A DNA stretch of 39,825 bases from Escherichia phage vB_EcoP_S523, in the sequence record MH031343; one strand, 5' to 3'. Below, piece after piece: positions 19,797-39,825 of this stretch. The stretch's first letter is position 1, and every line of letters begins with the position of its first letter. The notes under the pieces are model-generated. The model did not search any database. It was not told the DNA's origin and saw only the letters and a list, made by a program, of their open reading frames with translations. A program made the translations under genes and the position numbers.

Positions 19797-19798
19797 AG

Positions 19799-20238: not shown

Positions 20239-20261
20239 CTTCCCAATAGTGAGTCGTATTG
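20239..20261 (-). promoter_or_regulatory. phage RNAP promoter (phi13-like), CAATACGACTCACTATTGGGAAG
   Basis: Promoter core match between gene 12 stop and gene 13 start. Confidence 0.75.
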
Positions 20262-20289
20262 TTCACTAATTGAGTCGGGGTGTTTTCAT

Positions 20290-22677: not shown

Positions 22678-22702
22678 TAGAGACCTCCTTAAGTTGTTAC
22701 CA

Positions 22703-23293
22703 TTAGCGAGACAGCAGACCACCAGTGAAGGCATCACCATCAAGCATGTTGAAGTTACCAAAGTCCAGTTCATACTCGTGACACTGCATCTTCGCTTCTT
22801 GTTCTTCTTCAGCCAACACTGCGTCAATCTCAGGAGCACCAAAGAACCTGTTGTTAAACTGACGGGCAGCTTTAGTGACAATCCAGAAGCGGAAGCACTC
22901 AGGCATCTCGTAGAACTCGCGGAGCTTGATGATGGTCACAGTGATTGGGTTCTGGAACACATCGGTTCCTGTAGTCCGGTCATAGACGTAACCACCACGG
23001 TTAACGTAAGCGGTCGCGCCTCCTTCAGACAGTACGGACAGGTAGTCGGACATATAGGGAATCAATCCGTTGAACACATCGGGAAGTAACTGTTGGTCTT
23101 CCTCAATGTTGAACGTCCAGCCCTTAGATTGAATCTGACGGTTAATCTTATTGAGCACTCGACGAGCATTGGCAACATCGGCGTTAGCATCACCTTCCAA
23201 AGTGGAGACTGGCGGTTCACCGATAGAGGCCAAGATGTCATTGACCGCAGCCAACTCTTCGCCTGTCTCTAGGGTTGTTTCATAGGAACGCAT
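22703..23293 (-). CDS. tail tubular protein A (gp11), 196 aa
   Basis: ATG at 23291-23293 gives MRSYETT...; same length as T7 gp11 with conserved [24 protein letters not shown]. Confidence 0.9.
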
Positions 23294-23315
23294 GTTGGTA
23301 TCCTCCTGTTGTAGC

Positions 23316-23358
23316 GAAAAAAAAACCCTCAAGCACCCGCGAAGGCACCCAAGGGGTT
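23316..23358 (-). terminator. late terminator (Tphi-like): GC/GU-rich hairpin followed by a U9 tract
   Basis: Minus-strand RNA AACCCCUUGGGUGCCUUCGCGGGUGCUUGAGGG-UUUUUUUUU; same architecture and position (after capsid gene 10) as T7 Tphi. Confidence 0.7.
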
Positions 23359-23369
23359 TCATATAGTTA

Positions 23370-24547: not shown

Positions 24548-24715
24548 GTTGAATCTCCTTCTGTTGATTTAAAGTTTAATGTGTGAGGTACTACTTGAAA
24601 CGAGTTGGTTCTCATTGTGTATCACTCAAAGGGAGCATTCCCACGACAAGCCCGGAAGCCAGATGTCACAGCAACTTAATGGTCTGTGTGACCTCCAATC
24701 GTGGGATTCCATCTC

Positions 24716-24738
24716 TCTCCCAATAGTGAGTCGTATTA
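24716..24738 (-). promoter_or_regulatory. phage RNAP promoter upstream of capsid gene (phi10-like), TAATACGACTCACTATTGGGAGA
   Basis: Best promoter match in the window; about 165-nt leader ending AAGGAGATTCAACATG. Confidence 0.85.
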
Positions 24739-24741
24739 ATT

Positions 24742-25653
24742 TTAGAAGTTACTGTACATCATCTTACGCTCAACTTCAGCACGGAACTTAGAGTCCGAAC
24801 GGTAGCGAGGGTCAGACATTGCAGCAATCATCTCAGCCTGTGACTCAAAGCCAGACTGTTTGGCTCGTACAGGTGCAGCAGGTACGGCACGTTTAGAAAT
24901 GCTACGGGAAGCAGGTTTACCGAAAGTCTTCGCACGGCTTGCACCAGCAAGATTCACGATAGCCTTAACGGTCGCAAGGTCACGGTTTTCCAGAGCACTA
25001 ACCAGAGACTCGGCAGCATCCGGGTTGGACACTTCGAGGTGATTGTAGATTGCTTGGAACTGTGCTTCACCACCAGCATACTCCATAACAGACTGAACGT
25101 ACTGTTCGACCAGTGCTTCCTGTCCACGAATGTAGGAGTCAACGAAGGACTTAGAGTAGCCAGCCTTAGCCAGTTCTTCATAGGACTCTTCGGACAGACC
25201 ATCTTCACCATATTCCTGTTGGATACGGACGATAGTTTCTTCGGACAGACCACGTTCAGCAGCCTGATTGACCATCTCTTCGAAGCCAGCTTCATGCTCT
25301 TCGAGTTGACTTGAGGCTTCATTCAGTTCGTCTGGAACGTCACCCACAGGTTCAAACTCTTCGGAACCTTCTTCGTTGCCTTCGGAGTAATCAATCTCAC
25401 CCTCTTCGGTCTCTTCAGGTTCACCATCAGTGGAGATACGAATCTCAGTACGATTCTCGTCTTCTTCACCAAACGGGTCTGGATTACCATAAGGGTCATC
25501 ATTGCCAACTAACTCGATTGCATCATCACCATCACGGGCAGCAACATCGAGTTCAAGCATAGCCTGTTCGTGGTCAGTAGGAGTAGACCCACCGACAACC
25601 GCAGAGTTCACACCGAAAGATGCGTAAACATCAGCATTAGATTCACCGGACAT
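24742..25653 (-). CDS. capsid scaffolding protein (gp9), 303 aa
   Basis: ATG at 25651-25653 with AGGAGA RBS gives MSGESNADVYASFGVNSA... like T7 gp9; acidic; the track ORF begins at a non-ATG codon upstream. Confidence 0.88.
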   Translation of the reverse strand: MSGESNADVYASFGVNSAVVGGSTPTDHEQAMLELDVAARDGDDAIELVGNDDPYGNPDPFGEEDENRTEIRISTDGEPEETEEGEIDYSEGNEEGSEEFEPVGDVPDELNEASSQLEEHEAGFEEMVNQAAERGLSEETIVRIQQEYGEDGLSEESYEELAKAGYSKSFVDSYIRGQEALVEQYVQSVMEYAGGEAQFQAIYNHLEVSNPDAAESLVSALENRDLATVKAIVNLAGASRAKTFGKPASRSISKRAVPAAPVRAKQSGFESQAEMIAAMSDPRYRSDSKFRAEVERKMMYSNF

Positions 25654-25740
25654 ATTGTATCTCCTTTGATAATAAAGTTTAGAACTCAAAGGGACACCAA
25701 GGACTCCAACCTTGTGACGGCGCTCATTTCAAAGCCGTGT

Positions 25741-25763
25741 GTTCCCATTAGTGAGTCGTATTA
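25741..25763 (-). promoter_or_regulatory. phage RNAP promoter (phi9-like), TAATACGACTCACTAATGGGAAC
   Basis: Promoter core overlapping the gene 8 stop codon, upstream of gene 9. Confidence 0.8.
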
Positions 25764-27368
25764 ATTAGGAACCATACCAGCCTGTGCAGCAGCAGCTTCC
25801 ATGTTCTCAGGACTTGCAGTAGCCAGTGCACCAGCACCAGCACCAGCAGACGCAGCAGCGTTCTCCATAGCAGTACCTTGAGCGGCCTCAGCCATCTCCT
25901 GTTGCTTCTCTTCAGGTGTCTTAAGGATACCAGAAGTGTCGATGCCGATAGCATTCGCAATGCGCAACTTAATGGTCGCAATGTTGATGTCCGGGTCATT
26001 CTGCATAGGAGCAAGAGCAGACCAAGCAGCAATACAACGTTCCAGCTTATCGAGGTCTTGACCACGACCCAATGCTTCCATCCCGGTACTGATAGTAGGC
26101 TCAACGGCCTCTTTCGGTAACTCAGGAATTTGATTGGTTGCTTGAAGTTGCTTCAGCAGTACACGAACCATTGGCAACTGAAGTTCCTGTGAGAGAATCG
26201 AATAGACACCACCAAGGGTATCTTCGAGTTCAGATGCAACATAACGAATCTCTTCGGCAGTCACACGCTCACCAGTACGCTGCACAGCGGAGTTCAACAT
26301 AAAGGCATAGGACAGTCGGCCTTCAATCTGTTCACTCACAGCACGAGCCACGGAGAAGTCAGCAGCCTTTTCGAGTTGTAGGAACGAGATGTCTTCTGGA
26401 CGACCAGACACGAAGTCACCAGTCTGCGCTTTGGTCAAGCGTCGAACCTGTGTGATACCAGCCGGGTTTACCAAGCCGATAACCTTTGCACTAATCATGG
26501 ACATCTTGACGATAGCTTCCTGAAGGTTCTCAAGGGAACGTAAGTCACCCAAGTATTCCTCACAGTATGAACGACCGTATGATTCCCCATCAATGCGTAC
26601 CATGCGAACCGGGATATAAGGACAAGCGTCCACCGGATAAGAAGCATCTGTACCATCAACTTCGACTCCATCAATCTCTTCGTACTTCAGGTATTCGCCT
26701 GATTCCTCATCGAGATAAATGTGAGTATACACGTCAATCATTTCATCGCCTTTATGTTCCGTACCGGAGTCCATAGAGTTCCTTACGTCTTCTGGTAGTG
26801 CTGCATAGGCAGTCTTATCCAAGGTCACAATCTGTAGTACCGTGCCGAATGCGTCTCGTTGGACAACATAAGAAGACAGTCGGTATAACTTCATGGGATT
26901 GTAAGTACCTTCAGGTTCCGGGATGTAGAGCAGAGCGTTACCCGCTACGACCAACTGCTTCAGGGTCTCAAAGAGTGTCACACGGTATGAGTTTGACTCG
27001 ATGTAGTTCATCAAGATACGCTCGACCATTGAGAGACCCTCTTCGACCTTCGCCAGTTCAGCAGGTTGTGCAACCAATTGTTTCGCTTCGAACTCAGAGA
27101 TGGTCAGCTTCATCCAAGTCTGCATAGGGAACAGAGCGAGCATGAGCTTAGAGGCCAAGTTGTTCAGACCACGAGCGCCTACTGCTTGCCACGGAGTCGT
27201 GTAGTCAGTAGAGGCGTTATCGGAGTCCTTCGGGAACAACGAGGGGATGGTGTACTTCGCACAGTTTTCCGCACGGGTCTCATAGGAGTTCCGGTCGTTC
27301 TTCAATGCGTCATACACCGCCTTGGCACCATTCTCAGCGAAGCCTTCACGTTTCTGTGAGCTTGCCAT
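25761..27368 (-). CDS. head-to-tail connector / portal protein (gp8), 535 aa
   Basis: Colinear with T7 gp8 (536 aa). Confidence 0.95.
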   Translation of the reverse strand: MASSQKREGFAENGAKAVYDALKNDRNSYETRAENCAKYTIPSLFPKDSDNASTDYTTPWQAVGARGLNNLASKLMLALFPMQTWMKLTISEFEAKQLVAQPAELAKVEEGLSMVERILMNYIESNSYRVTLFETLKQLVVAGNALLYIPEPEGTYNPMKLYRLSSYVVQRDAFGTVLQIVTLDKTAYAALPEDVRNSMDSGTEHKGDEMIDVYTHIYLDEESGEYLKYEEIDGVEVDGTDASYPVDACPYIPVRMVRIDGESYGRSYCEEYLGDLRSLENLQEAIVKMSMISAKVIGLVNPAGITQVRRLTKAQTGDFVSGRPEDISFLQLEKAADFSVARAVSEQIEGRLSYAFMLNSAVQRTGERVTAEEIRYVASELEDTLGGVYSILSQELQLPMVRVLLKQLQATNQIPELPKEAVEPTISTGMEALGRGQDLDKLERCIAAWSALAPMQNDPDINIATIKLRIANAIGIDTSGILKTPEEKQQEMAEAAQGTAMENAAASAGAGAGALATASPENMEAAAAQAGMVPN

Positions 27369-27382
27369 TTAGCGCCTCCTTG

Positions 27383-27733
27383 TTAGATATTAAGACCACC
27401 GCCAGAACTACGAGCGACACTCAGAGATTTCTTACCACCAGCACGAGCTTTCTTCTTACCAGATTCGGTCTGTGCATCATCATCGGTGTCCACATCGTCT
27501 TTACTCGGTGGCTCAATAATCTGCGCAGCTACAGGAGCGGCTTGTTCAACCACCTGTACATCAGGCTTACCACCACCAGCAAGTGCACCAGCAACGCCAC
27601 CAACGACTTTACCAGCTTCCTTCCCGACCTTCTCGACTGCCTTACCAGTTTCCTTGACAATCTTCTCGACTGGCTTAGTTACTTTCTTGATAGTCTTTTT
27701 GATTTTCTTACGAATCTTTTTACCCCAACCCAT
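27383..27733 (-). CDS. gp7.3-like tail/host-range protein, 116 aa
   Basis: Lysine-rich N-terminus and C-terminus ESGKKKARAGGKKSLSVARSSGGGLNI as in T7 gp7.3. Confidence 0.8.
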   Translation of the reverse strand: MGWGKKIRKKIKKTIKKVTKPVEKIVKETGKAVEKVGKEAGKVVGGVAGALAGGGKPDVQVVEQAAPVAAQIIEPPSKDDVDTDDDAQTESGKKKARAGGKKSLSVARSSGGGLNI

Positions 27734-27747
27734 GATACACCTCCTAA

Positions 27748-28023
27748 TTATTTCTTCTTAAAGACACTGGTACGGATACCAGACTTGGACTTCTTCTTGG
27801 CAGCATCGGAGTCTGCCTTCTTGGACTTCTCAACGGAGTCATCCAGTTTCACCTTCAGGGACTTCTTGCCACCCGTTGGCACCTCAGAAGAGGTTCCGCT
27901 ATCATTGTCCTCTTCGCCACCAAAGAGAATACCTTTCGGTTCTTCCGTCAGTGGCGCAGGGTCGATAGCTCGGATGGATTCAGTCTTTACTTTAGGTGTC
28001 TTAATCTTTGGCGAAAAGCACAT
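27748..28023 (-). CDS. gp6.7-like virion protein, 91 aa
   Basis: N-terminus MCFSPKIKTPK... as recalled for T7 gp6.7; position after gene 6.5. Confidence 0.75.
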   Translation of the reverse strand: MCFSPKIKTPKVKTESIRAIDPAPLTEEPKGILFGGEEDNDSGTSSEVPTGGKKSLKVKLDDSVEKSKKADSDAAKKKSKSGIRTSVFKKK

Positions 28024-28038
28024 AAGACCTCCATACGA

Positions 28039-28284
28039 TTAGGACTCAGCCTGTTCCTTACGGATTGCCTCCATGTCGTCCAGAGTTTGAGACGCATAGT
28101 TGAGACCCGCGAGGAACCCAGCGATGTAGCTTTCAGACCATCCAGCCTGTTTCAATCGGTTGATTAGTCCTGACTGAATAGCATATCCAGCATTGTATTG
28201 AACCTGTAGGTACTCCATAGTTGCACGAGGCACATTAGGAATATCTTGTGGGTTCTCCATATACTTCTTGATAGGGGTTAACAT
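28039..28284 (-). CDS. gp6.5-like protein, 81 aa
   Basis: ATG at 28282-28284 with AAGGAGAA RBS just downstream of a phage promoter; MLTPIKKYMENPQDIPNVPRATMEYLQV...; the track ORF is an upstream extension. Confidence 0.65.
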   Translation of the reverse strand: MLTPIKKYMENPQDIPNVPRATMEYLQVQYNAGYAIQSGLINRLKQAGWSESYIAGFLAGLNYASQTLDDMEAIRKEQAES

Positions 28285-28335
28285 AATTAATGTTCTCCTT
28301 AAAGTTAAACTTAAAGTAGGTATCATATAGGCACC

Positions 28336-28358
28336 CCTCTCAATAGTGAGTCGTATTG
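28336..28358 (-). promoter_or_regulatory. phage RNAP promoter (phi6.5-like), CAATACGACTCACTATTGAGAGG
   Basis: Promoter core between gene 6.3-like ORF and gene 6.5. Confidence 0.75.
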
Positions 28359-28386
28359 ATTTCACTGTCGAGAAGAATGCCTAGAG

Positions 28387-28473
28387 TTACACACTCTTAG
28401 CTATAAATGCAGCCCACACCATAGCGAAGGCTACGATTGCGAACATTACGAACGCAACTGTTCCGGCGACCAT
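28387..28473 (-). CDS. gene 6.3-like small hydrophobic protein, 28 aa
   Basis: Hand-translated MVAGTVAFVMFAIVAFAMVWAAFIAKSV; AAGGAG RBS; overlaps the 3' end of gene 6. Confidence 0.3.
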   Translation of the reverse strand: MVAGTVAFVMFAIVAFAMVWAAFIAKSV

Positions 28474-29360
28474 AGGTAAATCTCCTTGTCGATAAAGTTG
28501 TACTCTTCGAATCGAAGTATGCGAGCCATCTGGCCTTGCTTAATGATTTCCTCTTCGGTCATCCCAGCTTTTGCACCAAGTGTCACAATGGCTTCCCATA
28601 GGGTTCGCTCACCCATGTCAACCTTTTTCCATTCGAGAACTGTCTGTCCCTTACGAGCACCAGACTTGAAAGTTTTCTCAACCTGTTCAAAGGCATACGG
28701 GTTCTCCAGCCACTCAGCGGTAGTCTCTCCCCAGCCCGGAATGCCACCATAGCCATCTGTCAAGTCACCTTTGATGGTCTGATAGATGTGCCAGTAGTCG
28801 GCAGTCGTCTGGTCTTGAGTCAAGATGTTACCAGTGGTACACCACAAGAAGTCACAATCAGGGATGGTCTTAAAGTCCTTATCACAGGAGACCAGCACAG
28901 CCTTCTTGAAACCAAAGTGTTTAGCACCAGACCCAATGATTCCCATTACGTCATCGCCCTCAAGTCGGTCCTCAAGGATAGACGTCCAGTCCTCACAGGC
29001 TTGAACACGCTCGACGAACGCACGGTAGCCTACAGGCTTACGGGATGCCTTACGGTTCTCCTTATAGGTTGGGTCCACCAGTTCCTTACGCCAGTTCACA
29101 GAGTCAGTGAAGGCCAATACGATAGGTGCATCACGCCAAGCCTTCTTACGGCTCGCATAGGACTTGATAGAGTCAACCAGAATGTTCCACGCTTTCCCAT
29201 GGTCACACTCTAAGGTCCACACATCGTCACCCCAATCGGTCTCGACTTCACTTGCTGCCATCGCTTGGAACACCAGCCAGTCACCATCCATTACGAGAAC
29301 ACCCTTATCGGATTTCCCTTGGCGTAACTCGTAGAACTCCTTCAGTGTAATTGCGCTCAT
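28446..29360 (-). CDS. 5'-3' exonuclease (gp6), 304 aa
   Basis: ATG at 29358-29360 gives MSAITLKEFYELRQG...GVLVMDGDWLVFQAM, colinear with T7 gp6; upstream part of track ORF is an extension. Confidence 0.9.
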   Translation of the reverse strand: MSAITLKEFYELRQGKSDKGVLVMDGDWLVFQAMAASEVETDWGDDVWTLECDHGKAWNILVDSIKSYASRKKAWRDAPIVLAFTDSVNWRKELVDPTYKENRKASRKPVGYRAFVERVQACEDWTSILEDRLEGDDVMGIIGSGAKHFGFKKAVLVSCDKDFKTIPDCDFLWCTTGNILTQDQTTADYWHIYQTIKGDLTDGYGGIPGWGETTAEWLENPYAFEQVEKTFKSGARKGQTVLEWKKVDMGERTLWEAIVTLGAKAGMTEEEIIKQGQMARILRFEEYNFIDKEIYLWSPEQLRS

Positions 29361-29566
29361 ACGCAACCTCCCATCTTCTTCAGGAATCGGACACCAGAGC
29401 CTGTTACTTCCCAAGCGCCAGCATTACGCCCATCGACTGATAGGCAAGAGATATGACCACGACTCGCAGCCTCAGCCACCAGTGACGCATTGTTGCGCAC
29501 ATAGTTCGACTGAAAGGTCTTAGGGCAGCTTTTGATAGCCGCCAGTACACGTAGATATTCACCCAT
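29357..29566 (-). CDS. gp5.7-like protein, 69 aa
   Basis: Same length as T7 gp5.7; position between gp5.5 and gene 6; overlaps gene 6 start by 4 nt. Confidence 0.6.
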   Translation of the reverse strand: MGEYLRVLAAIKSCPKTFQSNYVRNNASLVAEAASRGHISCLSVDGRNAGAWEVTGSGVRFLKKMGGCV

Positions 29567-29850
29567 TACTTCACCTCACGGATAGTTGCTGGAGAAACCT
29601 TCAGACCATCTTCCGGTAACTCGGTACGAATGAACTCTCGCATACCCTGTTTGGCGGCAAATGAGATAGCACCCTCGACACCATGAGTCAGCGCTTGTAC
29701 CAGAAGTTCACGGTCACGGGGACTAATCTTCTCACCAGCCGCAGCCTTCTTAGCCAAGTGAACCAGTTCCTCAGTGAATCCTTCCTCCATCTCGGAGGTG
29801 ATTACAGCGGTGACTTCGAATGATACTTTAAAGCGTTTAGTAATAGCCAT
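29566..29850 (-). CDS. gp5.5-like protein (T7 gp5.5 binds host H-NS), 94 aa
   Basis: MAITKRFKVSFEVTA... resembles T7 gp5.5 N-terminus; position downstream of the HNH gene. Confidence 0.65.
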   Translation of the reverse strand: MAITKRFKVSFEVTAVITSEMEEGFTEELVHLAKKAAAGEKISPRDRELLVQALTHGVEGAISFAAKQGMREFIRTELPEDGLKVSPATIREVK

Positions 29851-30172
29851 GATATTTCTCCTTTGCTTCTAATGTGATGACCTTCCGCTCTCGGTTGGTC
29901 TTGATTACGTGTTCCCGCTTGGGGATACACTGTAGGTGCTCTACGTTACAGCACCCACGGTTTAGGCATAGATGGTCTATCTCATACCCTTCTGGTATCT
30001 TTCCGTGGACGTTCTCCCACACGAATCGGTGGAACATGAAAGCAACCTTCTCACCCTTGCGGGACGAGCCTATGCTATACCGGAAGTACCCATCTTTGTT
30101 CCTCTTATGGGAGACGCAGACGATACAGCCAGTCGGCATAGTGTGAAACCTAAGCGTAGCAACGCCTCCCAT
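29837..30172 (-). CDS. HNH family endonuclease (homing-endonuclease-like; same position as T7 gene 5.3), 111 aa
   Basis: His-Me finger signature FHRFVWENVHGKIPEGYEIDHLCLNRGCCNVEHLQ with flanking Cys pairs; strong RBS AAGGAGGT; wedged between DNA polymerase and gene 5.5 with a 14-nt overlap. Confidence 0.8.
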   Translation of the reverse strand: MGGVATLRFHTMPTGCIVCVSHKRNKDGYFRYSIGSSRKGEKVAFMFHRFVWENVHGKIPEGYEIDHLCLNRGCCNVEHLQCIPKREHVIKTNRERKVITLEAKEKYHGYY

Positions 30173-30183
30173 AGTTTACCTCC

Positions 30184-32298
30184 TTAGTGACAAACGGCCC
30201 AATTCGGCCCCATCTTTCCTTCAGTATCCAGTTGACACCTGAAGTTAAAGTGGTCGCCAACCCAGCGCATAGCCTGTTGAGATACTTCGATTACAACTTT
30301 GGCAATCTCTTCAGTACGGCAAGCAAGCTGTTGCTCATCGTGTATCCACCCCATGAGGCAGAAGTCACCATCCCAGCCGTGCTTGTATCCCATCTCAAGG
30401 AGCATCTCTTCTGTCTTGACAATCCACAGTTTACAAATCAGAGCACCAGCAGATTGCAACAAGGTGTTCAACGCAGCGTGAGGACTACGGACATGGACTT
30501 TACGACCATCCAAGCCACGAACCCAACGGCGCTTCCAAGTTACCTTCTGTTCGCCACCAACCCACTTAGAGTCCTTGACGAGTGTACCTGTGATTGCTTC
30601 ACGTAACGCAGCGATAGCCGGAGTTTGCTCAAGGAAGTTCTTGATGAGTCGCTTACCATCTTCGGCAGTGCCACCAACAATCTGTCCAATCTTCGCAGCA
30701 CCAGCACCATAGAGGAACCCATAGATAAACGTCTTAGCGTTATCACGAGTAGGCAGACCAGCAGCCATCTGGTTCTTCGTATGGATGTCACCCGTTAGGA
30801 TGGTCTCAACGTACTCACCTTCGTCATAACGATACATGAAGTGACCTAAGCAACGTAGCTCAAGGCCGGACGCATCCACACCCACTTGAATCCAAGGGTC
30901 TGGCTTACCGTCTTTCATGTTGTGCTCGGCACCGAAAGCAGCACGGCAAGGTTCACCATAAGCAGCACGGATAGAAGGCACCTGTGCCACGTTAGGGAAG
31001 CTATGAGTTGCACGTCCAGTTACCGCACCGTTCGGGTTAACGCTACCGTGAATACGACCATCGTCTCCAATCATTCGGAGCCAGCCGTTATCACCTTCAG
31101 CAACCTGACCGATACGCTTCTGAATCATAAGGTATTCTTTAATCAACTCAATGCAACGCTGTGCATCAGGGTCGTCTACCTTAACGTGCTCTAAGACTTC
31201 ATCGTCTACCTTTGGTGCACCACTAGGAGTGAACTCAACTGGAACCCATCCAGCTTTGGTAAGCACACGAGTGATGTGGTCACGACTAGCAGGGTTAAAC
31301 ACAACGTGCTCTACAGGCGTGTAAGGTGCGCCCTCTACGTAATCACGAGTGTCCAGTTCACAAGGCTCCAGACCTTCACGTTGCTTCTTGTTCTTTGGCT
31401 TCTTAAAGATGCCACCCTGTTTCGGATACTTCACACGAGGATACTTAGTGAGAGGCTTACCAGTTCTCGGATGACGGAATGCTTCAACGCCACCCTTAGC
31501 CTGATACCATGAGCCGAAAGTGTTGGTCAGTTCGACCAGCAGTTCACCACGGCGACCAGCCAGTTCAGCGTAGAGATTCTCTAAGGACTTGATGTCAATA
31601 GGGAAACCATTACGTTCCATCTTGGCTAACAACCACGCAGCATCGTGTTCCAGTTTGACAGCCTCAAGGCTACCGTTCCAGAAACGTTCTGCTTCTGTGC
31701 TTCCAGCAGGTGTCTCGTTAGGGAAATAGAATGTGTTGCTACACAGTTTCTCGAAGAGAGCCTTGGTAACTACAACGTCTTGAACGTTATATTCCATCAT
31801 GTCTTCGTTGAAGAACAGCCACTCCATCCCCTCTTCGTATTCATCACCAGACTCTTCCAGTGACTTCTTAAAGTCGTCCTTGTACTCACCCTTCATTTCG
31901 CCTAAGCGGTAGCCCCACGCCTCAAGAGCGTGAGAGCCAAAGCGTTTACCCGGCAGCTTGCCAGAGCGCAGCAGACCAGCATCGGTGTCTTTGATGTTAG
32001 AGTAAATCAGTCGGGACATCACTAAGGTGTCCAAGACGTTCTCTTTCGGGAACTTAACGTCACGATTCAGAATCAGCTTCGCCAGCTTCTCGATAACAGG
32101 AACGTCATACTTGTGACCGTTGTGGAACACAATGAGACCACCACGAGCAACCTCGGCTTCGAGTGCATCAATGTATGCCCCAAAGTCATCAGGTCGGTAA
32201 CGGATGTACTGGTCGGTTGTGTAGTCGTAAGTCACCGCACAGTGAAATTGACTAACGTTGTGCAGCAACCCGTTTGTTTCGATGTCGGATAGTAACAT
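30184..32298 (-). CDS. DNA polymerase (gp5), 704 aa
   Basis: Same length as T7 gp5; conserved N-terminal exonuclease motif (SDIE.N.LL...FHC) and GLIVFHNGHKYDVP. Confidence 0.97.
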   Translation of the reverse strand: MLLSDIETNGLLHNVSQFHCAVTYDYTTDQYIRYRPDDFGAYIDALEAEVARGGLIVFHNGHKYDVPVIEKLAKLILNRDVKFPKENVLDTLVMSRLIYSNIKDTDAGLLRSGKLPGKRFGSHALEAWGYRLGEMKGEYKDDFKKSLEESGDEYEEGMEWLFFNEDMMEYNVQDVVVTKALFEKLCSNTFYFPNETPAGSTEAERFWNGSLEAVKLEHDAAWLLAKMERNGFPIDIKSLENLYAELAGRRGELLVELTNTFGSWYQAKGGVEAFRHPRTGKPLTKYPRVKYPKQGGIFKKPKNKKQREGLEPCELDTRDYVEGAPYTPVEHVVFNPASRDHITRVLTKAGWVPVEFTPSGAPKVDDEVLEHVKVDDPDAQRCIELIKEYLMIQKRIGQVAEGDNGWLRMIGDDGRIHGSVNPNGAVTGRATHSFPNVAQVPSIRAAYGEPCRAAFGAEHNMKDGKPDPWIQVGVDASGLELRCLGHFMYRYDEGEYVETILTGDIHTKNQMAAGLPTRDNAKTFIYGFLYGAGAAKIGQIVGGTAEDGKRLIKNFLEQTPAIAALREAITGTLVKDSKWVGGEQKVTWKRRWVRGLDGRKVHVRSPHAALNTLLQSAGALICKLWIVKTEEMLLEMGYKHGWDGDFCLMGWIHDEQQLACRTEEIAKVVIEVSQQAMRWVGDHFNFRCQLDTEGKMGPNWAVCH

Positions 32299-32310
32299 TG
32301 TGTTTACTCC

Positions 32311-32727
32311 TTAAAATGTTGAACGGCGATAGCCCATGAAGTTCTTAGGGTCAACCACACGCAGGTTCTTGTGGTTCAGCTTGTGATACTGAATCCCAGC
32401 GACTGTGCCCATTGCATCAATGCGAGTCACACGGGAGCACCAAATGTCTGTCCCCTCGACCTTACGGACATACCAAATGTCTGCATTGCTGGTGGAGGTG
32501 CAGAAGTCCCCAGCCTTAATGTGGGTCATCTTGTTTGCGTCGAAAGTCTGCATACCAACGCTACCACTATTGGTTACTGGTTTGACCCACTTGCCATACT
32601 TGCGGGTCCACCCTAAGTTCTTCAGGATGTGTACCGCAGAGTCACGCGCACATTCATACTCTTTGACATCAGCCAGTTCAGCTTGCAACTTAGAGATTTC
32701 AGCTTCGATTACATTACGATTACGCAT
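32311..32727 (-). CDS. gene 4.7-like hypothetical protein, 138 aa
   Basis: Position between gene 4.5-like ORF and gene 5; size close to T7 gp4.7 (135 aa); preceded by a variant phage promoter. Confidence 0.55.
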   Translation of the reverse strand: MRNRNVIEAEISKLQAELADVKEYECARDSAVHILKNLGWTRKYGKWVKPVTNSGSVGMQTFDANKMTHIKAGDFCTSTSNADIWYVRKVEGTDIWCSRVTRIDAMGTVAGIQYHKLNHKNLRVVDPKNFMGYRRSTF

Positions 32728-32735
32728 AGTGTTGT

Positions 32736-32758
32736 TCTCCCATTAGTGAGTTGAATAG
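32736..32758 (-). promoter_or_regulatory. variant phage RNAP promoter, CTATTCAACTCACTAATGGGAGA
   Basis: Conserved -11 to +6 (ACTCACTAATGGGAGA) but divergent -17 to -12; directly upstream of the gene 4.7-like ATG. Confidence 0.5.
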
Positions 32759-32767
32759 ATTTCATAC

Positions 32768-32816
32768 AAAAGTTAATCACCAAGGCCACCCGTAGATGAC
32801 CTTTAGTTTAACTCTT
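32768..32816 (-). promoter_or_regulatory. conserved ~48-nt structured element (putative RNase III processing site, R4.7-like); copy B
   Basis: aaaagttaatcaccaaggccacccgtagatgacctttagtttaactc; near-identical to the element at 39776..39825; imperfect long hairpin with internal bulges. Confidence 0.45.
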
Positions 32817-32817
32817 A

Positions 32818-32890
32818 CTCTTCACACTTGTCAGCAAGCATGTTGCCCTCAGAACTCTTCACACTTGTCAGCAAGCATGTTGCCCTCAGA
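32818..32890 (-). repeat. 37-bp tandem duplication (2 copies: 32818..32853 and 32855..32890) spanning the gene 4.5 stop codon
   Basis: ctcttcacacttgtcagcaagcatgttgccctcaga repeated back-to-back; the upstream copy encodes the last 12 codons of the gene 4.5-like ORF, the downstream copy is untranslated. Confidence 0.85.
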
Positions 32891-33154
32891 CTCCACGGCT
32901 TTACCTAGCAGAACCTGACGAACATTGTCTTCGCCTACAGCCACAGTAGCGGCTACAGCAACGGAGGCCAGCAGACGACCTGCCTGTGTGTCATCCAGAG
33001 TCACACGCTGTGTGTGCGCCTTGGTTGACTTACTGTCCTTCCAGCGGTAGACCAGAGTTACCTTGCCGTTGCGAACGTTGATGTGCACTCGGCGAGCATA
33101 CTGGTCGATGGTGTCAGACAGACGGATTGTGTTGCCGGGGAATTTAATAGCCAT
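32849..33154 (-). CDS. gene 4.5-like hypothetical protein, 101 aa
   Basis: ORF with ATG at 33152-33154; position between gene 4.3-like and gene 4.7-like ORFs. Confidence 0.55.
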   Translation of the reverse strand: MAIKFPGNTIRLSDTIDQYARRVHINVRNGKVTLVYRWKDSKSTKAHTQRVTLDDTQAGRLLASVAVAATVAVGEDNVRQVLLGKAVESEGNMLADKCEEF

Positions 33155-33347
33155 GTTGTGTACTCCTATTAGATACAGTTGTAGTTGGCAGTGAAAACCC
33201 TGCCGTTCTTCATCAAGTCCTTAGACCACGAGCGCCCTTGCTGTTCGCATATCTCGTATGCCTCAGCCTTTGGTGCCGTGATAGGGACTTGACTTATTGT
33301 TTGTCCGCTCACAGTTATCAGAGTGAGCACAAGGGTTATCGTAACCA

Positions 33348-33560
33348 TTACAGGAAGAACTTGTTCAGGTCGGTTGCTTTCGCTGCAATCTTAGCAGCAG
33401 ACGTAACGCCAGCACTTGCATCTTCAGACAGTAGACGTGCCTGTTTCGCCAAGCGTTGAGCCTGTTCTGCATCCTTACGTGCCTTGTCGTTCAGACGTTT
33501 AGCTTCACGGAAGTACATTTTAACTACCAGCTTACCAAGAGTGTTGATGAATTTAAACAT
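33348..33560 (-). CDS. gene 4.3-like protein, 70 aa
   Basis: ATG at 33558-33560 with AAGGAG RBS, just downstream of a phage promoter; same length as T7 gp4.3; track ORF is an upstream extension. Confidence 0.5.
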   Translation of the reverse strand: MFKFINTLGKLVVKMYFREAKRLNDKARKDAEQAQRLAKQARLLSEDASAGVTSAAKIAAKATDLNKFFL

Positions 33561-33603
33561 TGCGATTCTCCTTAAGTGGATTGATAAGTGGGAACAGAGT
33601 GTC

Positions 33604-33626
33604 TGTCCCATTAGTGAGTTGTATTG
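33604..33626 (-). promoter_or_regulatory. variant phage RNAP promoter (phi4.3-like), CAATACAACTCACTAATGGGACA
   Basis: Promoter core inside the 3' end of gene 4, upstream of the gene 4.3-like ORF. Confidence 0.55.
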
Positions 33627-33691
33627 ATTGCTTTCTGTAGAGCGCCTGTTCGCGCTCGTTCAGTTCTTCCCACTGGTCTACCCAATGGCTA

Positions 33692-35467
<1,776 letters not shown>

Positions 35468-35550
35468 TCACCGGAAGTGCTTCACCAAATAGCTTACGCA
35501 TAGTGGTTACTCCTTATACAATTTTAGCGAACAAAGGGAGAAACCTTTCG

Positions 35551-35573
35551 GCTCTCCCATAGTGAGTTCTATT
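35551..35573 (-). promoter_or_regulatory. irregular phage RNAP promoter-like site (phi4c position), TAATAGAACTCACTAT-GGGAGAG
   Basis: Promoter core one nucleotide short between CACTAT and GGG; followed by a GGGAGA...UCUCCC leader hairpin. Confidence 0.4.
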
Positions 35574-35665
35574 ACTTACGAGTTAAGATATAGGTCAATG
35601 CCAGAACGAATACACAGCGGTAAATCATATCGTACATGCCCATCTCATGAATAATCATCATAATC

Positions 35666-36121
35666 TTATCCCCAATCACTTGTTACTAATTCACCAGTCT
35701 TCAGCCAGCGACTCAAGTTAAAACTTGGACACGCTTTAGGAGCCACATCGTGGTGTGCTTTGATTTCTGCATCCGGGTACAGGTCTTTCAGGTCTGCCAG
35801 TTTCTCTTTAAGAGAGTGCATCTGTGCTGGCGTAAAGTTAGCTTCGTGTCTGCCCTTATCGTCGATACCACCAACGAGGCACACACCAACTGACTTACTG
35901 TTCCAGTCTTTCACATGAGACCCAACGACACCGACCGGACGGCCTTCTTCGATTGTACCATCACGGCGAATAATGAAGTGGTAGCCTACATCAAGCCAGC
36001 CCTGTTCTTTATGCCACTGACGGATTTCACGCAGACCGACATTCATGGTCGCCTTAGTTGCGCTACAATGGACAAAGATTGCTTCTGTCACAGCGCGTGG
36101 TTTGAATTGTACCTTACTCAT
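35666..36121 (-). CDS. lysozyme / N-acetylmuramoyl-L-alanine amidase (gp3.5), 151 aa
   Basis: Same length as T7 gp3.5; conserved AIFVHCSATK, REIRQWHKEQGWLDVGYHFII, HHDVAPKACPSF. Confidence 0.92.
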   Translation of the reverse strand: MSKVQFKPRAVTEAIFVHCSATKATMNVGLREIRQWHKEQGWLDVGYHFIIRRDGTIEEGRPVGVVGSHVKDWNSKSVGVCLVGGIDDKGRHEANFTPAQMHSLKEKLADLKDLYPDAEIKAHHDVAPKACPSFNLSRWLKTGELVTSDWG

Positions 36122-36564
36122 TTCTTCTTCACCTCTTTAAATTTATCGAATGGAACATCCTTAGAAGGCTCTTTAAGCCAATCAACTGGAATTAATTTGT
36201 CAGCAAACAGAATGCCATGCTTCTCACACCACTCGCCATAACTGGTCGGAGACCCTTTGTACAGCTTGGAGCGACTAGAAGAGAACACGATGCGCACATC
36301 AAGTTCAGGATACTGTTCACGGATAAGTAAGTGCTTCTTACGGTCGTCACTGTCCCACAGACCTTTGGTTTCCACAAAGATGCCATTAGGTAACAGGAAG
36401 TCCGGGCAATAGGTATGGTTGCTTGCAGGAACAACATATGGTACACGCCAACGCTCGTAGTCGAACTTAATGTTCTTCCCTTCGAGTTGTTTGCTTACCT
36501 TATCCTCCAAGCCAGAGCGAAAGGCACCCACACGAGTGCCTCGACCTGCATAGCCCTTAGCCAT
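36118..36564 (-). CDS. endonuclease I, Holliday-junction resolvase (gp3), 148 aa
   Basis: Colinear with T7 gp3 (VGAFRSGLEDKVSKQLE, PDFLLPNGIFVETKGLW). Confidence 0.9.
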   Translation of the reverse strand: MAKGYAGRGTRVGAFRSGLEDKVSKQLEGKNIKFDYERWRVPYVVPASNHTYCPDFLLPNGIFVETKGLWDSDDRKKHLLIREQYPELDVRIVFSSSRSKLYKGSPTSYGEWCEKHGILFADKLIPVDWLKEPSKDVPFDKFKEVKKK

Positions 36565-37262
36565 TAGAAATCACCGTCTTCGTCTTCATCGTCCTCTTCT
36601 GGTTCTTCATTCCAGCCAGAGTCGTTTTGAGGCTTGCGGGTCTGTGCTTCATCAGCTTCGTAGCCGTCTTCTTCGATTTCATCACCCCAATCGTCATCAC
36701 CACCACCGAACTCGACCAGCTTAATCAGCATCACGGAATCCAGTTGCAGCTTAACGGAAGCACCTGCCACAGCAGACCAACCGTAAGGGAACAGAGTGTA
36801 TTTAATCTTCAGTTCAGAGCCACCAGAGATAGCTGGACGCTCACCACGGATGCGCTTACCTTTGGAGTCCACGATAGCCAAGTCGATTGGTTTGTTCTCA
36901 CCAGTCTTCTTGTCAGTGAACGAGCCGTAGCACTTGAAGTTGAACGTAGTGGTTCCATCTTCGTTATCCATGAAAGGCATGTCGCCAACATATGGCTTCA
37001 GCGGTTTCTTACCCTTGACAACTTTCGGCGGGTTCGCTTCGTACTCTTCGAGTCGAGCAGCGTAGTCCGTCTCATGGGCTTCGACAATCTCGTCAATCAT
37101 CTTCTGACAGCGAGGGTCGTCGTTGGATACAGTCAGTGATACTTTGTAGACACCACGTTCGTTCTTGAAGTCACCGCTACCGAAGTCCGGCTTTGCCAGA
37201 TAGCAGTAAGGTTCAGCAATACCACGAGCGGAAGTGAATACTTTACGTTTTGCGAATGCCAT
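36564..37262 (-). CDS. single-stranded DNA-binding protein (gp2.5), 232 aa
   Basis: Same length as T7 gp2.5; conserved N-terminus and acidic C-terminal tail ending DGDF. Confidence 0.92.
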   Translation of the reverse strand: MAFAKRKVFTSARGIAEPYCYLAKPDFGSGDFKNERGVYKVSLTVSNDDPRCQKMIDEIVEAHETDYAARLEEYEANPPKVVKGKKPLKPYVGDMPFMDNEDGTTTFNFKCYGSFTDKKTGENKPIDLAIVDSKGKRIRGERPAISGGSELKIKYTLFPYGWSAVAGASVKLQLDSVMLIKLVEFGGGDDDWGDEIEEDGYEADEAQTRKPQNDSGWNEEPEEDDEDEDGDF

Positions 37263-37310
37263 AATGATTCTCCTTTAGTTTCTGAAAGTTAAAAGTGGGA
37301 AACGTTAGTG

Positions 37311-37333
37311 TCTCCCATTAGTGAGTCCTATTA
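37311..37333 (-). promoter_or_regulatory. phage RNAP promoter (phi2.5-like), TAATAGGACTCACTAATGGGAGA
   Basis: Promoter core overlapping the gene 2 stop, upstream of gene 2.5. Confidence 0.7.
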
Positions 37334-37522
37334 AACCTTACGGTCTGGACGGATGCGTGTTACAGCGAAGCCAGCAGGGACGTATTGCCACTCAGCTAAC
37401 TCATTGGCCTCTTCAAGAGACGTAGCGAACACGGGTACTTCGAACGATTGGCCTTGGCCTTCTACCGTAGCGAAGAACTTCTTGTCACCGTTTACCAGTG
37501 ACCCTTTATTCAGAGTGCTCAT
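37331..37522 (-). CDS. gp2-like inhibitor of host RNA polymerase, 63 aa
   Basis: Size (T7 gp2 64 aa) and conserved [20 protein letters not shown] motif. Confidence 0.8.
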
Positions 37523-37617
37523 TGTCCTCTCTCCTTCCAGTGATTATATAATTCAAGGTAGTCGGTGTTGCCTGTCTTTTCAAACATACGCTCACACCAT
37601 TCACTAGGCTTTTCCAT
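37519..37617 (-). CDS. gene 1.8-like small protein, 32 aa
   Basis: Hand-translated [32 protein letters not shown]; GAGGTGG RBS; stop overlaps gene 2 ATG (ATGA). Confidence 0.3.
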
Positions 37618-37697
37618 ATTCCACCTCTATAGCCCAAAACATGAGGAACAGGCAAGCACCCATTCCAACACAAATTAGCAGGAAATATAAGATGTCA

Positions 37698-38069
37698 TTA
37701 AGCATAGCACTTACCTTTGTGTTTCTCGTACAGTTCACCATAGAACCCAGCTTTCGCCATGTCCTTCTCTAAGAATGCTAGTTCAGATTTCTTACCAGCA
37801 CGTAGGCGATACTTAAGGATGTTCCCTAAGCAGTACCCTTTGAACTGTTCACGGGTCATCGACCGGGCAATCACTTCGATAGCCTCAATGTCGTCAAACA
37901 ACATATAGTGGCTCGGAGTACGAACATCATCTATATCTTGTGGTTTGTCTGACTTAGTGCAACTACATACACCAGCGCCATTCCAGATTGTACACTCACT
38001 GGTGTGCTTTGTTTTGCAGGTATGCGGGTAGCGGTCATCTTTCTCTAAACATGCTATGCAACCAGACAT
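37698..38069 (-). CDS. gp1.7-like protein (T7 gp1.7 is a nucleotide kinase), short form, 123 aa
   Basis: Conserved CIACLEKDDRYPHTC and PSHYMLFDDIEAIEVIARSMT..FKGYC.GNILKYRLRAGKK relative to recalled T7 gp1.7, but lacking about 70 central residues. Confidence 0.75.
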   Translation of the reverse strand: MSGCIACLEKDDRYPHTCKTKHTSECTIWNGAGVCSCTKSDKPQDIDDVRTPSHYMLFDDIEAIEVIARSMTREQFKGYCLGNILKYRLRAGKKSELAFLEKDMAKAGFYGELYEKHKGKCYA

Positions 38070-38332
38070 TAGAACACCTCCTTGATACGAGCAATGACCA
38101 GACGGACTTTAGGGAAACGGGTGACAAGAACCGGAATGAAAGGCCGGGAGCCAGTGGTCGCTTCTTTATATAAGCCAGTGGTGATTACAGCGTGAACACG
38201 AGGTGCTAACTCAATGGTCGAGCCAAGCACTTTAGGAATGACAGCATGTTTCTCGGAGGCAAGAACCGTCGAGCGGTCGGAACCACGAGCAGAAAAGATA
38301 CCGTTTGATTTGTTGAAGTGTAGTCGTAACAT
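38069..38332 (-). CDS. gene 1.6-like protein, 87 aa
   Basis: ATG at 38330-38332 lies 8 nt downstream of GGAGG in the promoter-initiated leader; the track ORF start at 38347 lies upstream of the predicted transcription start. Confidence 0.55.
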   Translation of the reverse strand: MLRLHFNKSNGIFSARGSDRSTVLASEKHAVIPKVLGSTIELAPRVHAVITTGLYKEATTGSRPFIPVLVTRFPKVRLVIARIKEVF

Positions 38333-38339
38333 AAGTGTT

Positions 38340-38362
38340 TCCTCCATAGGTGAGTCGTATTA
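38340..38362 (-). promoter_or_regulatory. variant phage RNAP promoter (phi1.6-like), TAATACGACTCACCTATGGAGGA
   Basis: Perfect -17 to -5 match, divergent -4 to +4; initiating region doubles as the RBS for gene 1.6. Confidence 0.55.
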
Positions 38363-38440
38363 GCAATCAGGCCAGCAGTTGTCGTCAATGATAACGAAGG
38401 CAAACGTGGCAAAGATAGCAGCAGCAATTAGAAATAGCAT
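38360..38440 (-). CDS. small hydrophobic peptide (gene 1.5 position), 26 aa
   Basis: Hand-translated MLFLIAAAIFATFAFVIIDDNCWPDC; its TAA stop is the first bases of the phi1.6 promoter. Confidence 0.3.
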   Translation of the reverse strand: MLFLIAAAIFATFAFVIIDDNCWPDC

Positions 38441-38447
38441 GAGGTTG

Positions 38448-38470
38448 TTCCTCCATAGTGAGTCTAATAG
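38448..38470 (-). promoter_or_regulatory. variant phage RNAP promoter (phi1.5-like), CTATTAGACTCACTATGGAGGAA
   Basis: Partial promoter core with the same TATGGAGGA initiating region as the phi1.6 site. Confidence 0.4.
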
Positions 38471-38503
38471 AAACACGAAAAGGCCAGACCCGAAAGTCTG
38501 ACC
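38470..38503 (-). terminator. intrinsic terminator (TE-like early terminator): 8-bp stem, 6-nt loop, U-rich tail
   Basis: Minus-strand RNA GGUCAGAC-UUUCGG-GUCUGGCC-UUUUCGUGUUUCU; located after the ligase gene region, where T7 TE lies. Confidence 0.6.
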
Positions 38504-38510
38504 AGTGTTA

Positions 38511-38693
38511 CTACATGTTGGCGTGAAGATATGCCTTTACCTCGGATATGCTTCTACACTCTTTCTGTGTGAAGTAATCCCACTTGCGTCCATAAGAGGC
38601 TGGGTCGTCTCCCTCAGACCACTTCAGGATGTGGAATACCTGTAAGTGTGGGTGTTGCCATACCTTCCAAATGCCTTGGTCAAAGATTATCAT
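38511..38693 (-). CDS. hypothetical protein, 60 aa, immediately downstream of ligase
   Basis: ORF MIIFDQGIWKVWQ...; start overlaps ligase stop (TAATG); lies before the TE-like terminator. Confidence 0.4.
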   Translation of the reverse strand: MIIFDQGIWKVWQHPHLQVFHILKWSEGDDPASYGRKWDYFTQKECRSISEVKAYLHANM

Positions 38694-39739
38694 TACATCT
38701 TCTCCGTTGGGTTATCTTCAGTACCACGGAACATAACGAACGATGGGTGACGCAGAGAACCATCAGGAGTTTCCTCCATGTAGGCAACCTGACACGCCCA
38801 ATTCATATAAGGCGCTGGCTTCATGCCATCCTCAGTGGTCTCCCACTTGGTGTACGCTTCGGTAAACTCATCCATCAGAGCGCGAGAGATGTTTGTGGCG
38901 TTAACTACACGACCACTCTCAAGAAGCACTTCGAATCCGATAATCTTACCTTCGTTAGCCAAGCCGGGAGTTCCCCAGCAGTATCCAATGACCTCACCAT
39001 CAGCTTCACTCTCAGGCTTCATCTTCCACCAGCCAGACTTCTTACCACGCTTGTAGACTTCCAGCGGGTCTTTGACAACCAGACCTTCATGACCATCGGC
39101 GCGAGCTTTCTCGTAGAGTTCCTGAAGTTCTACCATGTCGTAGACTTCTTTGGCCTCAGAGAGTTCCCAAGTGATTTCCGGGAAGTGTTCACTAAGAACC
39201 GGAATGAGGGAACGCACATGCTCTTGCATCAGGAGGGACATAACGCCGTACTCTTTGCCTTCTACCATATCGTGATACGGCATAGCAGCATACAAGACAA
39301 CCTTCAGGCGCTGTGGGTCTAACTCAAACGGCTGTTTGTTCTTCTTCCACTCTTCATGGAAGTATTCGCTGGTGGAGTGCACGAAGTTTGTGGCCTTGAG
39401 CCACTTGGTTCTCAGTAGGCCAGACCCTGTGTTGAAGTCTACGCCTTTGACCATGAGTTCGCCATCCAGCATAAAGCCATCAGGGAAAATCCAGCGGTCA
39501 TCTTTGAGAACATTAGCCCAGCGTTGGTCGAACCCATTAAGGTGCTCAAGCGCGGGGATGGTCTTGGAGACACGGGACAGCCACAGGCAGTCAGCCGTAT
39601 TGTCAACCACGATGTTACCACGTACACCATCATGCTTAGTGTCAGCAATCAGGTAGCCAGCCTTGTCGAGTGCTTTCTTAATGGCAGACTCAACGTAGGA
39701 TACTGCTTTGAACGGCGAAGTCTTAAATGTGATTTCCAT
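38693..39739 (-). CDS. ATP-dependent DNA ligase (gp1.3), 348 aa
   Basis: Catalytic lysine motif KHDGVRG (T7: KYDGVRG) and conserved PFKAVSYVESAIKKALD, GSLRHPSFVMFRGTEDNP..EKM. Confidence 0.95.
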   Translation of the reverse strand: MEITFKTSPFKAVSYVESAIKKALDKAGYLIADTKHDGVRGNIVVDNTADCLWLSRVSKTIPALEHLNGFDQRWANVLKDDRWIFPDGFMLDGELMVKGVDFNTGSGLLRTKWLKATNFVHSTSEYFHEEWKKNKQPFELDPQRLKVVLYAAMPYHDMVEGKEYGVMSLLMQEHVRSLIPVLSEHFPEITWELSEAKEVYDMVELQELYEKARADGHEGLVVKDPLEVYKRGKKSGWWKMKPESEADGEVIGYCWGTPGLANEGKIIGFEVLLESGRVVNATNISRALMDEFTEAYTKWETTEDGMKPAPYMNWACQVAYMEETPDGSLRHPSFVMFRGTEDNPTEKM

Positions 39740-39775
39740 GATGGAACTCCTTTAGTGTGTCGGTTAATAAGTAAT

Positions 39776-39825
39776 CAAAAGTTAATCACAAAGGCCACCC
39801 GTGAAGATGACCTTTAGTTTAACTC
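39776..39825 (-). promoter_or_regulatory. conserved ~50-nt structured element (putative RNase III processing site, R1.3-like); copy A, continuing into window start
   Basis: aaaagttaatcacaaaggccacccgtgaagatgacctttagtttaactc; last 19 nt identical to window positions 1..19; lies between the phi1.3-like promoter and the ligase RBS. Confidence 0.45.

Follow-up and report, generated by a model that had tools for sequence, protein, structure and literature searches.

The compact regulatory block at positions 38340..38510 of the window, which is the whole 39,825-nt stretch of DNA analysed here, is very probably the early-to-middle transcription junction of a Berlinvirus, homologous to the series TE/phi1.5/gene 1.5/phi1.6/gene 1.6 of the phages BA14, T3 and T7. 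All elements named in the original prediction are real and were correctly identified; with the block already annotated in BA14, Kvp1, T3 and T7, it is an ordinary one.

Results and Discussion

The window represents a T7-family phage genome (Berlinvirus) that is reverse-complemented and circularly permuted, with phi1.3 at 42..20 and the ligase gene starting at 39739. Over 24.8 kb it exhibits approximately 94% identity to the phages 285P, BSP161 and BA14, and across the block the identity to these three amounts to 98-99%. Over an 801-bp region the identity reaches 99.0% with Salmonella phage BSP161 and 97.8% with Escherichia phage 285P, and BA14 and Kvp1 match in part, at about 93%. BSP161, 285P, BA14 and Kvp1 are all classified as Autographiviridae, Studiervirinae, Berlinvirus, and from the high identity to 285P, BSP161 and BA14 the window is therefore a Berlinvirus genome.

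Every long ORF near the block is carried by the minus strand, on which the order is ligase gene, 60-aa ORF, TE hairpin, phi1.5, gene 1.5, phi1.6 and gene 1.6. This anatomy can be read directly from the minus strand as ATGTAG TAACACT GGTCAGACT TTCG GGTCTGGCC TTTTCGTGTTT CTATTAGACTCACTATGGAGGAA CAACCTC ATG (26 codons) TGC TAATACGACTCACCTATGGAGGA AACACTT ATG. For comparison, 31 related loci were anchored on gp1.6 and their upstream 200-800 nt were dissected.

Gene 1.3 (38693..39739, minus strand) was found as an ORF for an ATP-dependent DNA ligase of 348 aa, annotated as gp1.3 or DNA ligase in BA14, 285P, Kvp1 and BSP161. It closes the series of large genes in the early unit, which is transcribed by host polymerase. 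The block had been described as lying after ligase; it is indeed located downstream of the ligase gene, but not directly, as a 60-codon ORF (38693..38511) intervenes. This ORF (38511..38693, minus strand) corresponds to a hypothetical protein in BSP161 and to phrog_6957 (E = 8e-22); its start codon overlaps the stop codon of the ligase gene (ATGTAATGA). Related sequences are found in 236 phage records from unrelated groups, and the ORF is missing from BA14 and Kvp1, both of which align as two pieces. Being located upstream of TE, it is therefore part of the early unit. At the other end of the block, gene 1.6 (38069..38332, minus strand) encodes an 87-aa BC10-family protein (Pfam PF06726, E = 3.4e-19, 69.3 bits, exceeding the curated cut-off of 27; phrog_1777), the product of which is 99% identical to BA14 gp1.6 and 55% identical to T7 gp1.6. 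A 92-aa version of gene 1.6 starting from an ATG inside the promoter (38347) was rejected: the ATG at 38332 has GGAGG 8 nt upstream, and the starts in BA14, T7 and T3 agree with 38332.

The hairpin and U tract that had been placed at 38470..38503 are present on the minus strand at 38503..38472. The hairpin GGUCAGACU-UUCG-GGUCUGGCC (DNA GGTCAGACT-TTCG-GGTCTGGCC; 38482..38503), detected by a terminator scan, is identical to the BA14 'terminator TE', and the same scan gave the U-rich tail UUUUCGUGUU (DNA TTTTCGTGTT; 38472..38481, minus strand). Nine pairs, five of them G-C, form the stem, which carries a 4-nt loop. With a folding energy of -19.4 kcal/mol the 51-nt RNA around TE is far more stable than its dinucleotide shuffles (-8.3 +/- 2.3 kcal/mol; z = -4.84), none of which folded as well (0 of 200). 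Among terminator-like sites on the coding strand of the whole window TE takes rank 2; rank 1 is held by a 13-pair hairpin (23355..23326) at the late-terminator position of the relatives. No Rfam family matched within 37900..38900 (E <= 1).

A TE-type hairpin pairs in all 19 distinct variants obtained from the 31 related loci, with energies between -11.9 and -18.7 kcal/mol. The variants were folded one by one and the pairs numbered from the stem base. Pairs 1-2 are G-C in every case, whereas pair 5 occurs as AU, CG, GU or UG, pair 6 as GC, AU or GU and pair 7 as AU, UG or CG, so that two-sided, compensatory changes at pairs 5-7, observed directly in the 19 variants, preserve the pairing. The loops differ as well (UUCG, GAAA, UUAG, UAAC and others), and every one of the 19 variants has 6-7 T in its 10-nt tail. 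When the 19 hairpin regions were aligned with MAFFT and analysed by RNAalifold, only 3 pairs were recovered, because MAFFT set the 5' arms of the two clades out of register; this analysis was superseded by the per-sequence folding. Conservation and covariation of TE among the relatives support a function, and by analogy with the T7 and T3 terminators we infer that TE would terminate E. coli RNA polymerase in the window phage. In T7, host transcription reaches TE just past 7.5 kb and T7 RNA polymerase brings in and transcribes the remaining genome; the termination efficiency of T7 TE was described as 'substantial' (PMC3737178).

To locate phage-polymerase promoters, a first weight matrix was built from all 16 annotated BA14 promoters including phi1.5 and phi1.6, and is circular for those two. 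In the window it picked out exactly 16 sites, every one of them on the coding strand and each corresponding to one annotated promoter of BA14; the opposite strand gave none. A leave-out matrix was then made from 14 BA14 promoters, with the homologous phi1.5 and phi1.6 omitted. Here phi1.5 scored 18.0 bits and phi1.6 21.5 bits, compared to 24.1-37.8 bits for the other 14 window promoters; these two are thus the lowest-scoring of the 16 sites, with phi1.5 at the bottom. Any site as good as phi1.5 was found in 12 of 1000 composition-matched random genomes, and any as good as phi1.6 in 1 of 1000, while the expectation of such scores in a given 200-nt stretch is 3e-5. Given this rarity, both are therefore real matches. 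A search with the consensus TAATACGACTCACTAWTGGGAGA allowing up to 3 mismatches gave 11 other window sites (chance expectation none), and neither phi1.5 nor phi1.6 was among them.

The promoter originally called degenerate, phi1.5 (CTATTAGACTCACTATGGAGGAA; 38448..38470, minus strand), deserves the term: besides having the lowest score it departs from the 23-nt consensus at 8 positions, of which 4 fall within the polymerase-binding part -17..-5, so the promoter could be very weak. The second predicted variant promoter, phi1.6 (TAATACGACTCACCTATGGAGGA; 38362..38340, minus strand), has 4 mismatches to the 23-bp consensus at -4, -3, +3 and +4 and none in -17..-5, which is perfect (TAATACGACTCAC). 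Identical 23-mers are annotated as phi1.5 and phi1.6, respectively, in BA14. Owing to the departures at +3/+4 (GGGAGA to GGAGGA), the start region reads as a canonical Shine-Dalgarno sequence. In phi1.5, GGAGG (38454..38450) is located 9 nt before the ATG of gene 1.5; in phi1.6, the bases +1 to +5 are GGAGG (38345..38341), 8 nt before the ATG of gene 1.6 (38332), and the suggestion that they double as its ribosome-binding site agrees with this geometry. Judged by motif and spacing, the two GGAGG sequences are the predicted Shine-Dalgarno elements of gene 1.5 and gene 1.6. No sigma-70-type promoter was found in the block on either strand, and no phage-type promoter was found by the weight-matrix scan on its plus strand. 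By analogy with T7 and T3, phi1.5 and phi1.6 would be used by the phage polymerase; T7 phi1.5 and phi1.6 were reportedly mapped experimentally (Dunn and Studier 1983).

Between the two promoters lies gene 1.5 (38360..38440, minus strand), which encodes the 26-aa peptide MLFLIAAAIFATFAFVIIDDNCWPDC and is annotated as gp1.5 in BA14, 285P and Kvp1. The hydrophobic 26-aa ORF had thus been assigned at its correct coordinates. It starts with the ATG at 38440 and, as had been predicted, ends on a TAA (38362..38360) that forms the first bases, positions 1-3, of phi1.6. The peptide combines a hydrophobic N-terminal segment (Kyte-Doolittle mean 2.84 for residues 1-18) with an acidic, Cys-containing tail, DDNCWPDC. 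It matches phrog_10145 with E = 2.8e-17, residues 1-26 aligning to profile positions 1-26 of 26, and the site between phi1.5 and gene 1.6 is the same as in BA14, Kvp1, 285P and T3. A tblastn search with the 26-aa query against the phage collection gave no hits, owing to the shortness and low complexity of the peptide, and the family placement was therefore taken from PHROGs.

The mini-ORF is open in 29 of 31 relatives. For 10 distinct Berlin-type gene 1.5 sequences a pooled dN/dS of 0.31 was obtained, and for the T7-type set 0.15. Variable columns of the Berlin-type set are distributed over the three codon positions as 10/6/14. For the Berlin-type tail, counted from codon 19 onwards, pN is 0.010 and pS 0.400; over both gene 1.5 types the C-terminal tail ranges from 0.010 to 0.029 in pN and from 0.37 to 0.40 in pS. 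As pN is far below pS here and DDNCWPDC is kept through synonymous changes, the constraint acts on the protein and not on the DNA. Judged by these substitution patterns, gene 1.5 evolves under purifying selection, as a protein-coding sequence. Antisense ORFs on the plus strand (e.g. 38379..38501, 40 aa, TTG start) were rejected as genes; they span promoter and terminator, the frame is broken in the related loci L017 and L018, and the plus strand offers neither a phage-type nor a sigma-70-type promoter.

T7 gp1.5 matches only phrog_12128 and the window peptide only phrog_10145; the window peptide is thus not a member of the T7 gp1.5 family. The two peptides agree in position and size, and each has a hydrophobic N-terminus and a D-D-[ND]-x-[WM]-P-D-like tail, so that they can be regarded as positional and functional analogues rather than as established homologues. 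When expressed alone, T7 Gp1.5 inhibits growth of E. coli in minimal medium, an effect that is relieved by stringent-like RNA polymerase alleles; consistent two-hybrid interactions with RelA, SpoT or RpoZ were not seen (PMC13483052). The growth inhibition indicates that the T7 counterpart peptide is biologically active. Since the two peptides belong to different PHROG families (10145 and 12128), the T7 toxicity result may not transfer; with the T7 toxicity and its link to the stringent response in mind, the gene 1.5 peptide may act on host physiology. Literature searches for gene 1.5, 1.4 and 1.6 phrases gave no results, the main text of the PhageMaP T7 essentiality and T7 genome-reduction papers contains nothing specific on gene 1.5, and TE, phi1.5 and phi1.6 are not covered in a preprint on T7 transcript degradation.

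The identity of the block to annotated features was observed directly, and BA14 (EU734171) gives the closest match: TE at 7987..8008, phi1.5 at 8020..8042, gene 1.5 at 8050..8130, phi1.6 at 8128..8150 and gene 1.6 at 8158..8421. Element order, spacing, hairpin, U tract and both promoter 23-mers equal those of the window, and so do the 81-nt length of gene 1.5, its tail and the TAA inside phi1.6. BA14 differs by having no 60-aa ORF between ligase gene and TE and by four differences in the hydrophobic part of gp1.5 (residues 6-10: IASVA in BA14, AAAIF in the window). The Kvp1 annotation has a rho-independent terminator and phi1.5, together with a gene 1.5 described as 'similar to gene 1.5 protein of T3'.

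In T7 (NC_001604) an 'E. coli transcription terminator TE' (7588) is annotated together with gene 1.4, phi1.5 (7778), gene 1.5 (7791..7880), phi1.6 (7895) and gene 1.6 (7906..8166). Similar to the window, T7 TE follows the ligase gene and exhibits the base pairs GG/CC, a UUCG loop and a CCUUUCUGCGUUU tail; the two promoters are class II, with GGAGG/GGAGA at +1 as ribosome-binding sites and an ATG 8-9 nt later; and T7 gene 1.5 is hydrophobic-then-acidic, its TAA forming the first three bases of phi1.6 (TAATACGACTCAC). In contrast to the window, gene 1.4 (51 aa) is placed between TE and phi1.5, the promoter positions -4..-1 read TAAA instead of TATG/CTAT, and gp1.5 has 29 aa with the tail DDDMPDGHA and belongs to phrog_12128 instead of phrog_10145.

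For T3 (NC_003298) the record lists a 'rho-independent early transcriptional terminator TE for E. coli RNA polymerase' (7646..7667), phi1.5 (7683..7705) and gene 1.5 (7714..7791). TE stands directly after the ligase gene; next come phi1.5 and gene 1.5, whose 25-aa product, MWLILFAIVATLGLMVADDNIWPDC, belongs to the same type as the window peptide. The promoter specificity of T3 (ATTAACCCTCACTAA) is unlike that of the window, and T3 has no phi1.6: the TAA of gene 1.5 is directly followed by GGAGA and the ATG of gene 1.6. Likewise, locus L018 has no promoter at the phi1.6 position, only a ribosome-binding site. With T3 and L018 as examples, phi1.6 appears to be dispensable in evolution.

The overlap of signals had also been called unusually tight, and this part of the original prediction is not supported. 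T7 has exactly equal overlaps, and 23 of the 29 relatives with an open mini-ORF end it on the TAA of TAATACGACTCAC. The hairpin abuts phi1.5 in 22 of 27 relatives with a recognisable hairpin, T7 with its interposed gene 1.4 being an exception. In the window itself, the stop codon of the upstream gene is contained in 5 of the 16 promoters (phi1.3, phi1.6, phi2.5, phi3.8-type and phi9), or in 6 if one case with an unannotated ORF is included, and a ribosome-binding site and start codon follow closely after +1 at phi1.5, phi1.6, phi4.7 and phi6.5. The tight arrangement is thus an ancestral trait of the group.

The following course of events can be proposed for the junction. Host RNA polymerase of the E. 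coli type would start at the left-end early promoters and transcribe the early region, the ligase gene included, as far as the end of the 60-aa ORF. The intrinsic terminator TE (38503..38482 plus U tract) would then stop it and define the end of the early mRNA; as in T7, this stop would also end genome entry driven by the host polymerase. The single-subunit phage RNA polymerase, made from early mRNA, would take over, and its transcripts from phi1.05, phi1.1 and phi1.3 would be expected to pass TE, by analogy with T7 and T3. To these, the weak, class-II-type phi1.5 and phi1.6 would add transcripts from approximately 38453 and from 38345. In both, the initially transcribed hexamer, which is GGGAGA and already purine-rich in this promoter family, reads GGAGGA and provides a perfect Shine-Dalgarno sequence 8-9 nt ahead of the start codons of gene 1.5 and 1.6, so that the same GGAGG bases could serve both initiation and ribosome binding, for mRNAs starting there or upstream. 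Gene 1.5 is very probably a real, translated gene, its 26-aa peptide having one hydrophobic segment, which by comparison with T7 and T3 is probably membrane-spanning, and the conserved acidic tail DDNCWPDC.

Alternatively, one or both promoters might be decayed relics, GGAGG acting solely as ribosome-binding site and genes 1.5 and 1.6 being served by read-through from phi1.05, phi1.1 and phi1.3. The two sites are the lowest of 16 (18.0 and 21.5 bits, compared to 24-38 bits), phi1.5 carries 4 mismatches in the -17..-5 binding region, T3 and L018 manage without phi1.6, and relatives vary by one base in the distance from GACTCAC to TATGGAGG (CACCTATGG, CACATATGG, CACTATGG). We nevertheless consider such a decay unlikely: -17..-5 of phi1.6 is perfect (TAATACGACTCAC) and conserved in Berlin-type and T7-type loci with no coding need beyond the TAA, the T7 record annotates phi1.5 and phi1.6 both as T7 promoters, and the scores of the two sites are rare by chance. 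That the 26-codon ORF is an untranslated spacer between promoters, open by chance or by a constraint at the DNA level, is very improbable. Such a reading could draw on its shortness, on the 26-aa tblastn query that remained without hits, and on the antisense frame, which is also stop-free over about 45 codons in most close relatives; with the antisense frame also open, open frames in this place are weak evidence alone. The antisense frame is, however, broken in L017 and L018, on a strand without a promoter match, whereas on the coding strand third-position changes dominate (10/6/14), dN/dS is 0.31 and the tail exhibits pN 0.010 against pS 0.400. Moreover, the ORF is retained in T3 despite the other promoter specificity and the missing phi1.6, has a canonical GGAGG 9 nt upstream and belongs to a recognised PHROG family.

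For the hairpin, a role mainly in RNA processing or stability, as RNase III site or 3'-end protector instead of terminator, seems extremely improbable. T7-family early mRNAs are cut at several RNase III sites, T3 annotates the RNase III site R1.3 just upstream of its ligase gene, and the early mRNA would also gain stability from a hairpin at its 3' end. With its 9-bp stem and tetraloop, though, the hairpin is far shorter than T7-type RNase III sites (40 nt for T3 R1.3), there is no Rfam match, and the U-rich tail, unneeded for processing, is conserved in every variant. The T7 and T3 homologues are annotated as E. coli RNA polymerase terminators, and T7 TE is substantially efficient (PMC3737178). 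Stabilisation of the 3' end after termination is compatible with TE as terminator and does not compete with it.

A further idea, which we regard as quite unlikely, is that the conserved abutment of TE and phi1.5 is not mere compaction but a functional device for the hand-over between polymerases. Position -17 of phi1.5 begins approximately 11 nt past the TE stem, so close that a host polymerase letting go at the U tract would still cover it. In one version, host polymerase that fails to stop at TE could be blocked by phage polymerase sitting on phi1.5; in the other, phi1.5 could stay occluded for as long as a host polymerase is stalled or terminating at TE. If true, either effect would couple genome entry to the polymerase switch.

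Conclusion

The block would mark the end of host-polymerase transcription in this Berlinvirus and the place where middle-gene transcription by the phage polymerase can begin. The 26-codon ORF appears to be a real gene that deserves annotation, and beyond correct annotation the finding has little import.

Over its full length (1..39825), the window comprises one complete genome of the T7 type, stored in circularly permuted and reverse-complemented form. Its break point falls between the phage promoter phi1.3 (42..20) and the gene belonging to it, ligase (start 39739). The true genome ends, marked by the terminal repeat, must lie somewhere within approximately 6350 to 7330, with phiOL located at 6342..6320 and phiOR at 7352..7330.

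In many of the phage promoters of the window the initial GGGAGA at +1 is followed downstream by its own complement, as exemplified by GGGAGAcactaacgtTTCCCA (37317..37296, minus strand). Similar complementary sequences were also found after the promoters at 35574, 33626, 24738, 12924 and 1191. Transcripts starting from these promoters would carry a predicted stem-loop at the 5' end, a type of feature that is also present in the phi10 leader of T7. The promoters phi1.5 and phi1.6 lack such a complement after +1 because ribosome-binding site and ATG follow immediately.

Promoter phi1.6 is labile in evolution. The site approximately 30 nt 5' of the gene 1.6 ATG was compared in L015, L016, L012/L017/L019, L018 and L026, all relatives' loci anchored on gp1.6. 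Depending on the locus, GACTCAC is separated from TATGGAGG by C, by A or by no base. One base is lost at −14 in L015, and in L026 the promoter is partly duplicated at this site (TAATACTTCTAATACGACTCAC). L018 as well as T3 exhibit no promoter at all at the phi1.6 position.

The next gene after 1.6 (37698..38069, minus strand) encodes a Cys-rich DUF3310 protein (PF11753) of 123 aa. Profiles of T7 gp1.7-type nucleotide kinases are matched only in their C-terminal part, with positions 83–172 of 175 covered in phrog_2585, and the gene is therefore a shortened equivalent of gene 1.7. Its BA14 counterpart is annotated as 'unknown product'. Another ORF (37604..37741, minus strand), whose 45-aa product contains a hydrophobic segment, overlaps both the end of the DUF3310 gene and the start of a gene 1.8-like ORF. 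Within this 45-aa ORF a terminator-like hairpin of 9 pairs is located (37645..37666, minus strand).

Between the ligase gene and the early terminator TE, a 60-aa ORF (MIIFDQGIWKVWQHPHLQ..., 38511..38693, minus strand) was located, the ATG of which overlaps the ligase stop codon (ATGTAATGA). It was found in BSP161, 285P and PZJ0206 and is missing from BA14, Kvp1 and FE44. Its product matches phrog_6957 and has no match in Pfam. By tblastn, relatives were detected in 236 phage records from unrelated groups, including T4-like RB49, rV5-like phages, the jumbo phage PBECO4 and Cronobacter S13. The ORF appears to be a small mobile gene that entered the early unit by insertion.
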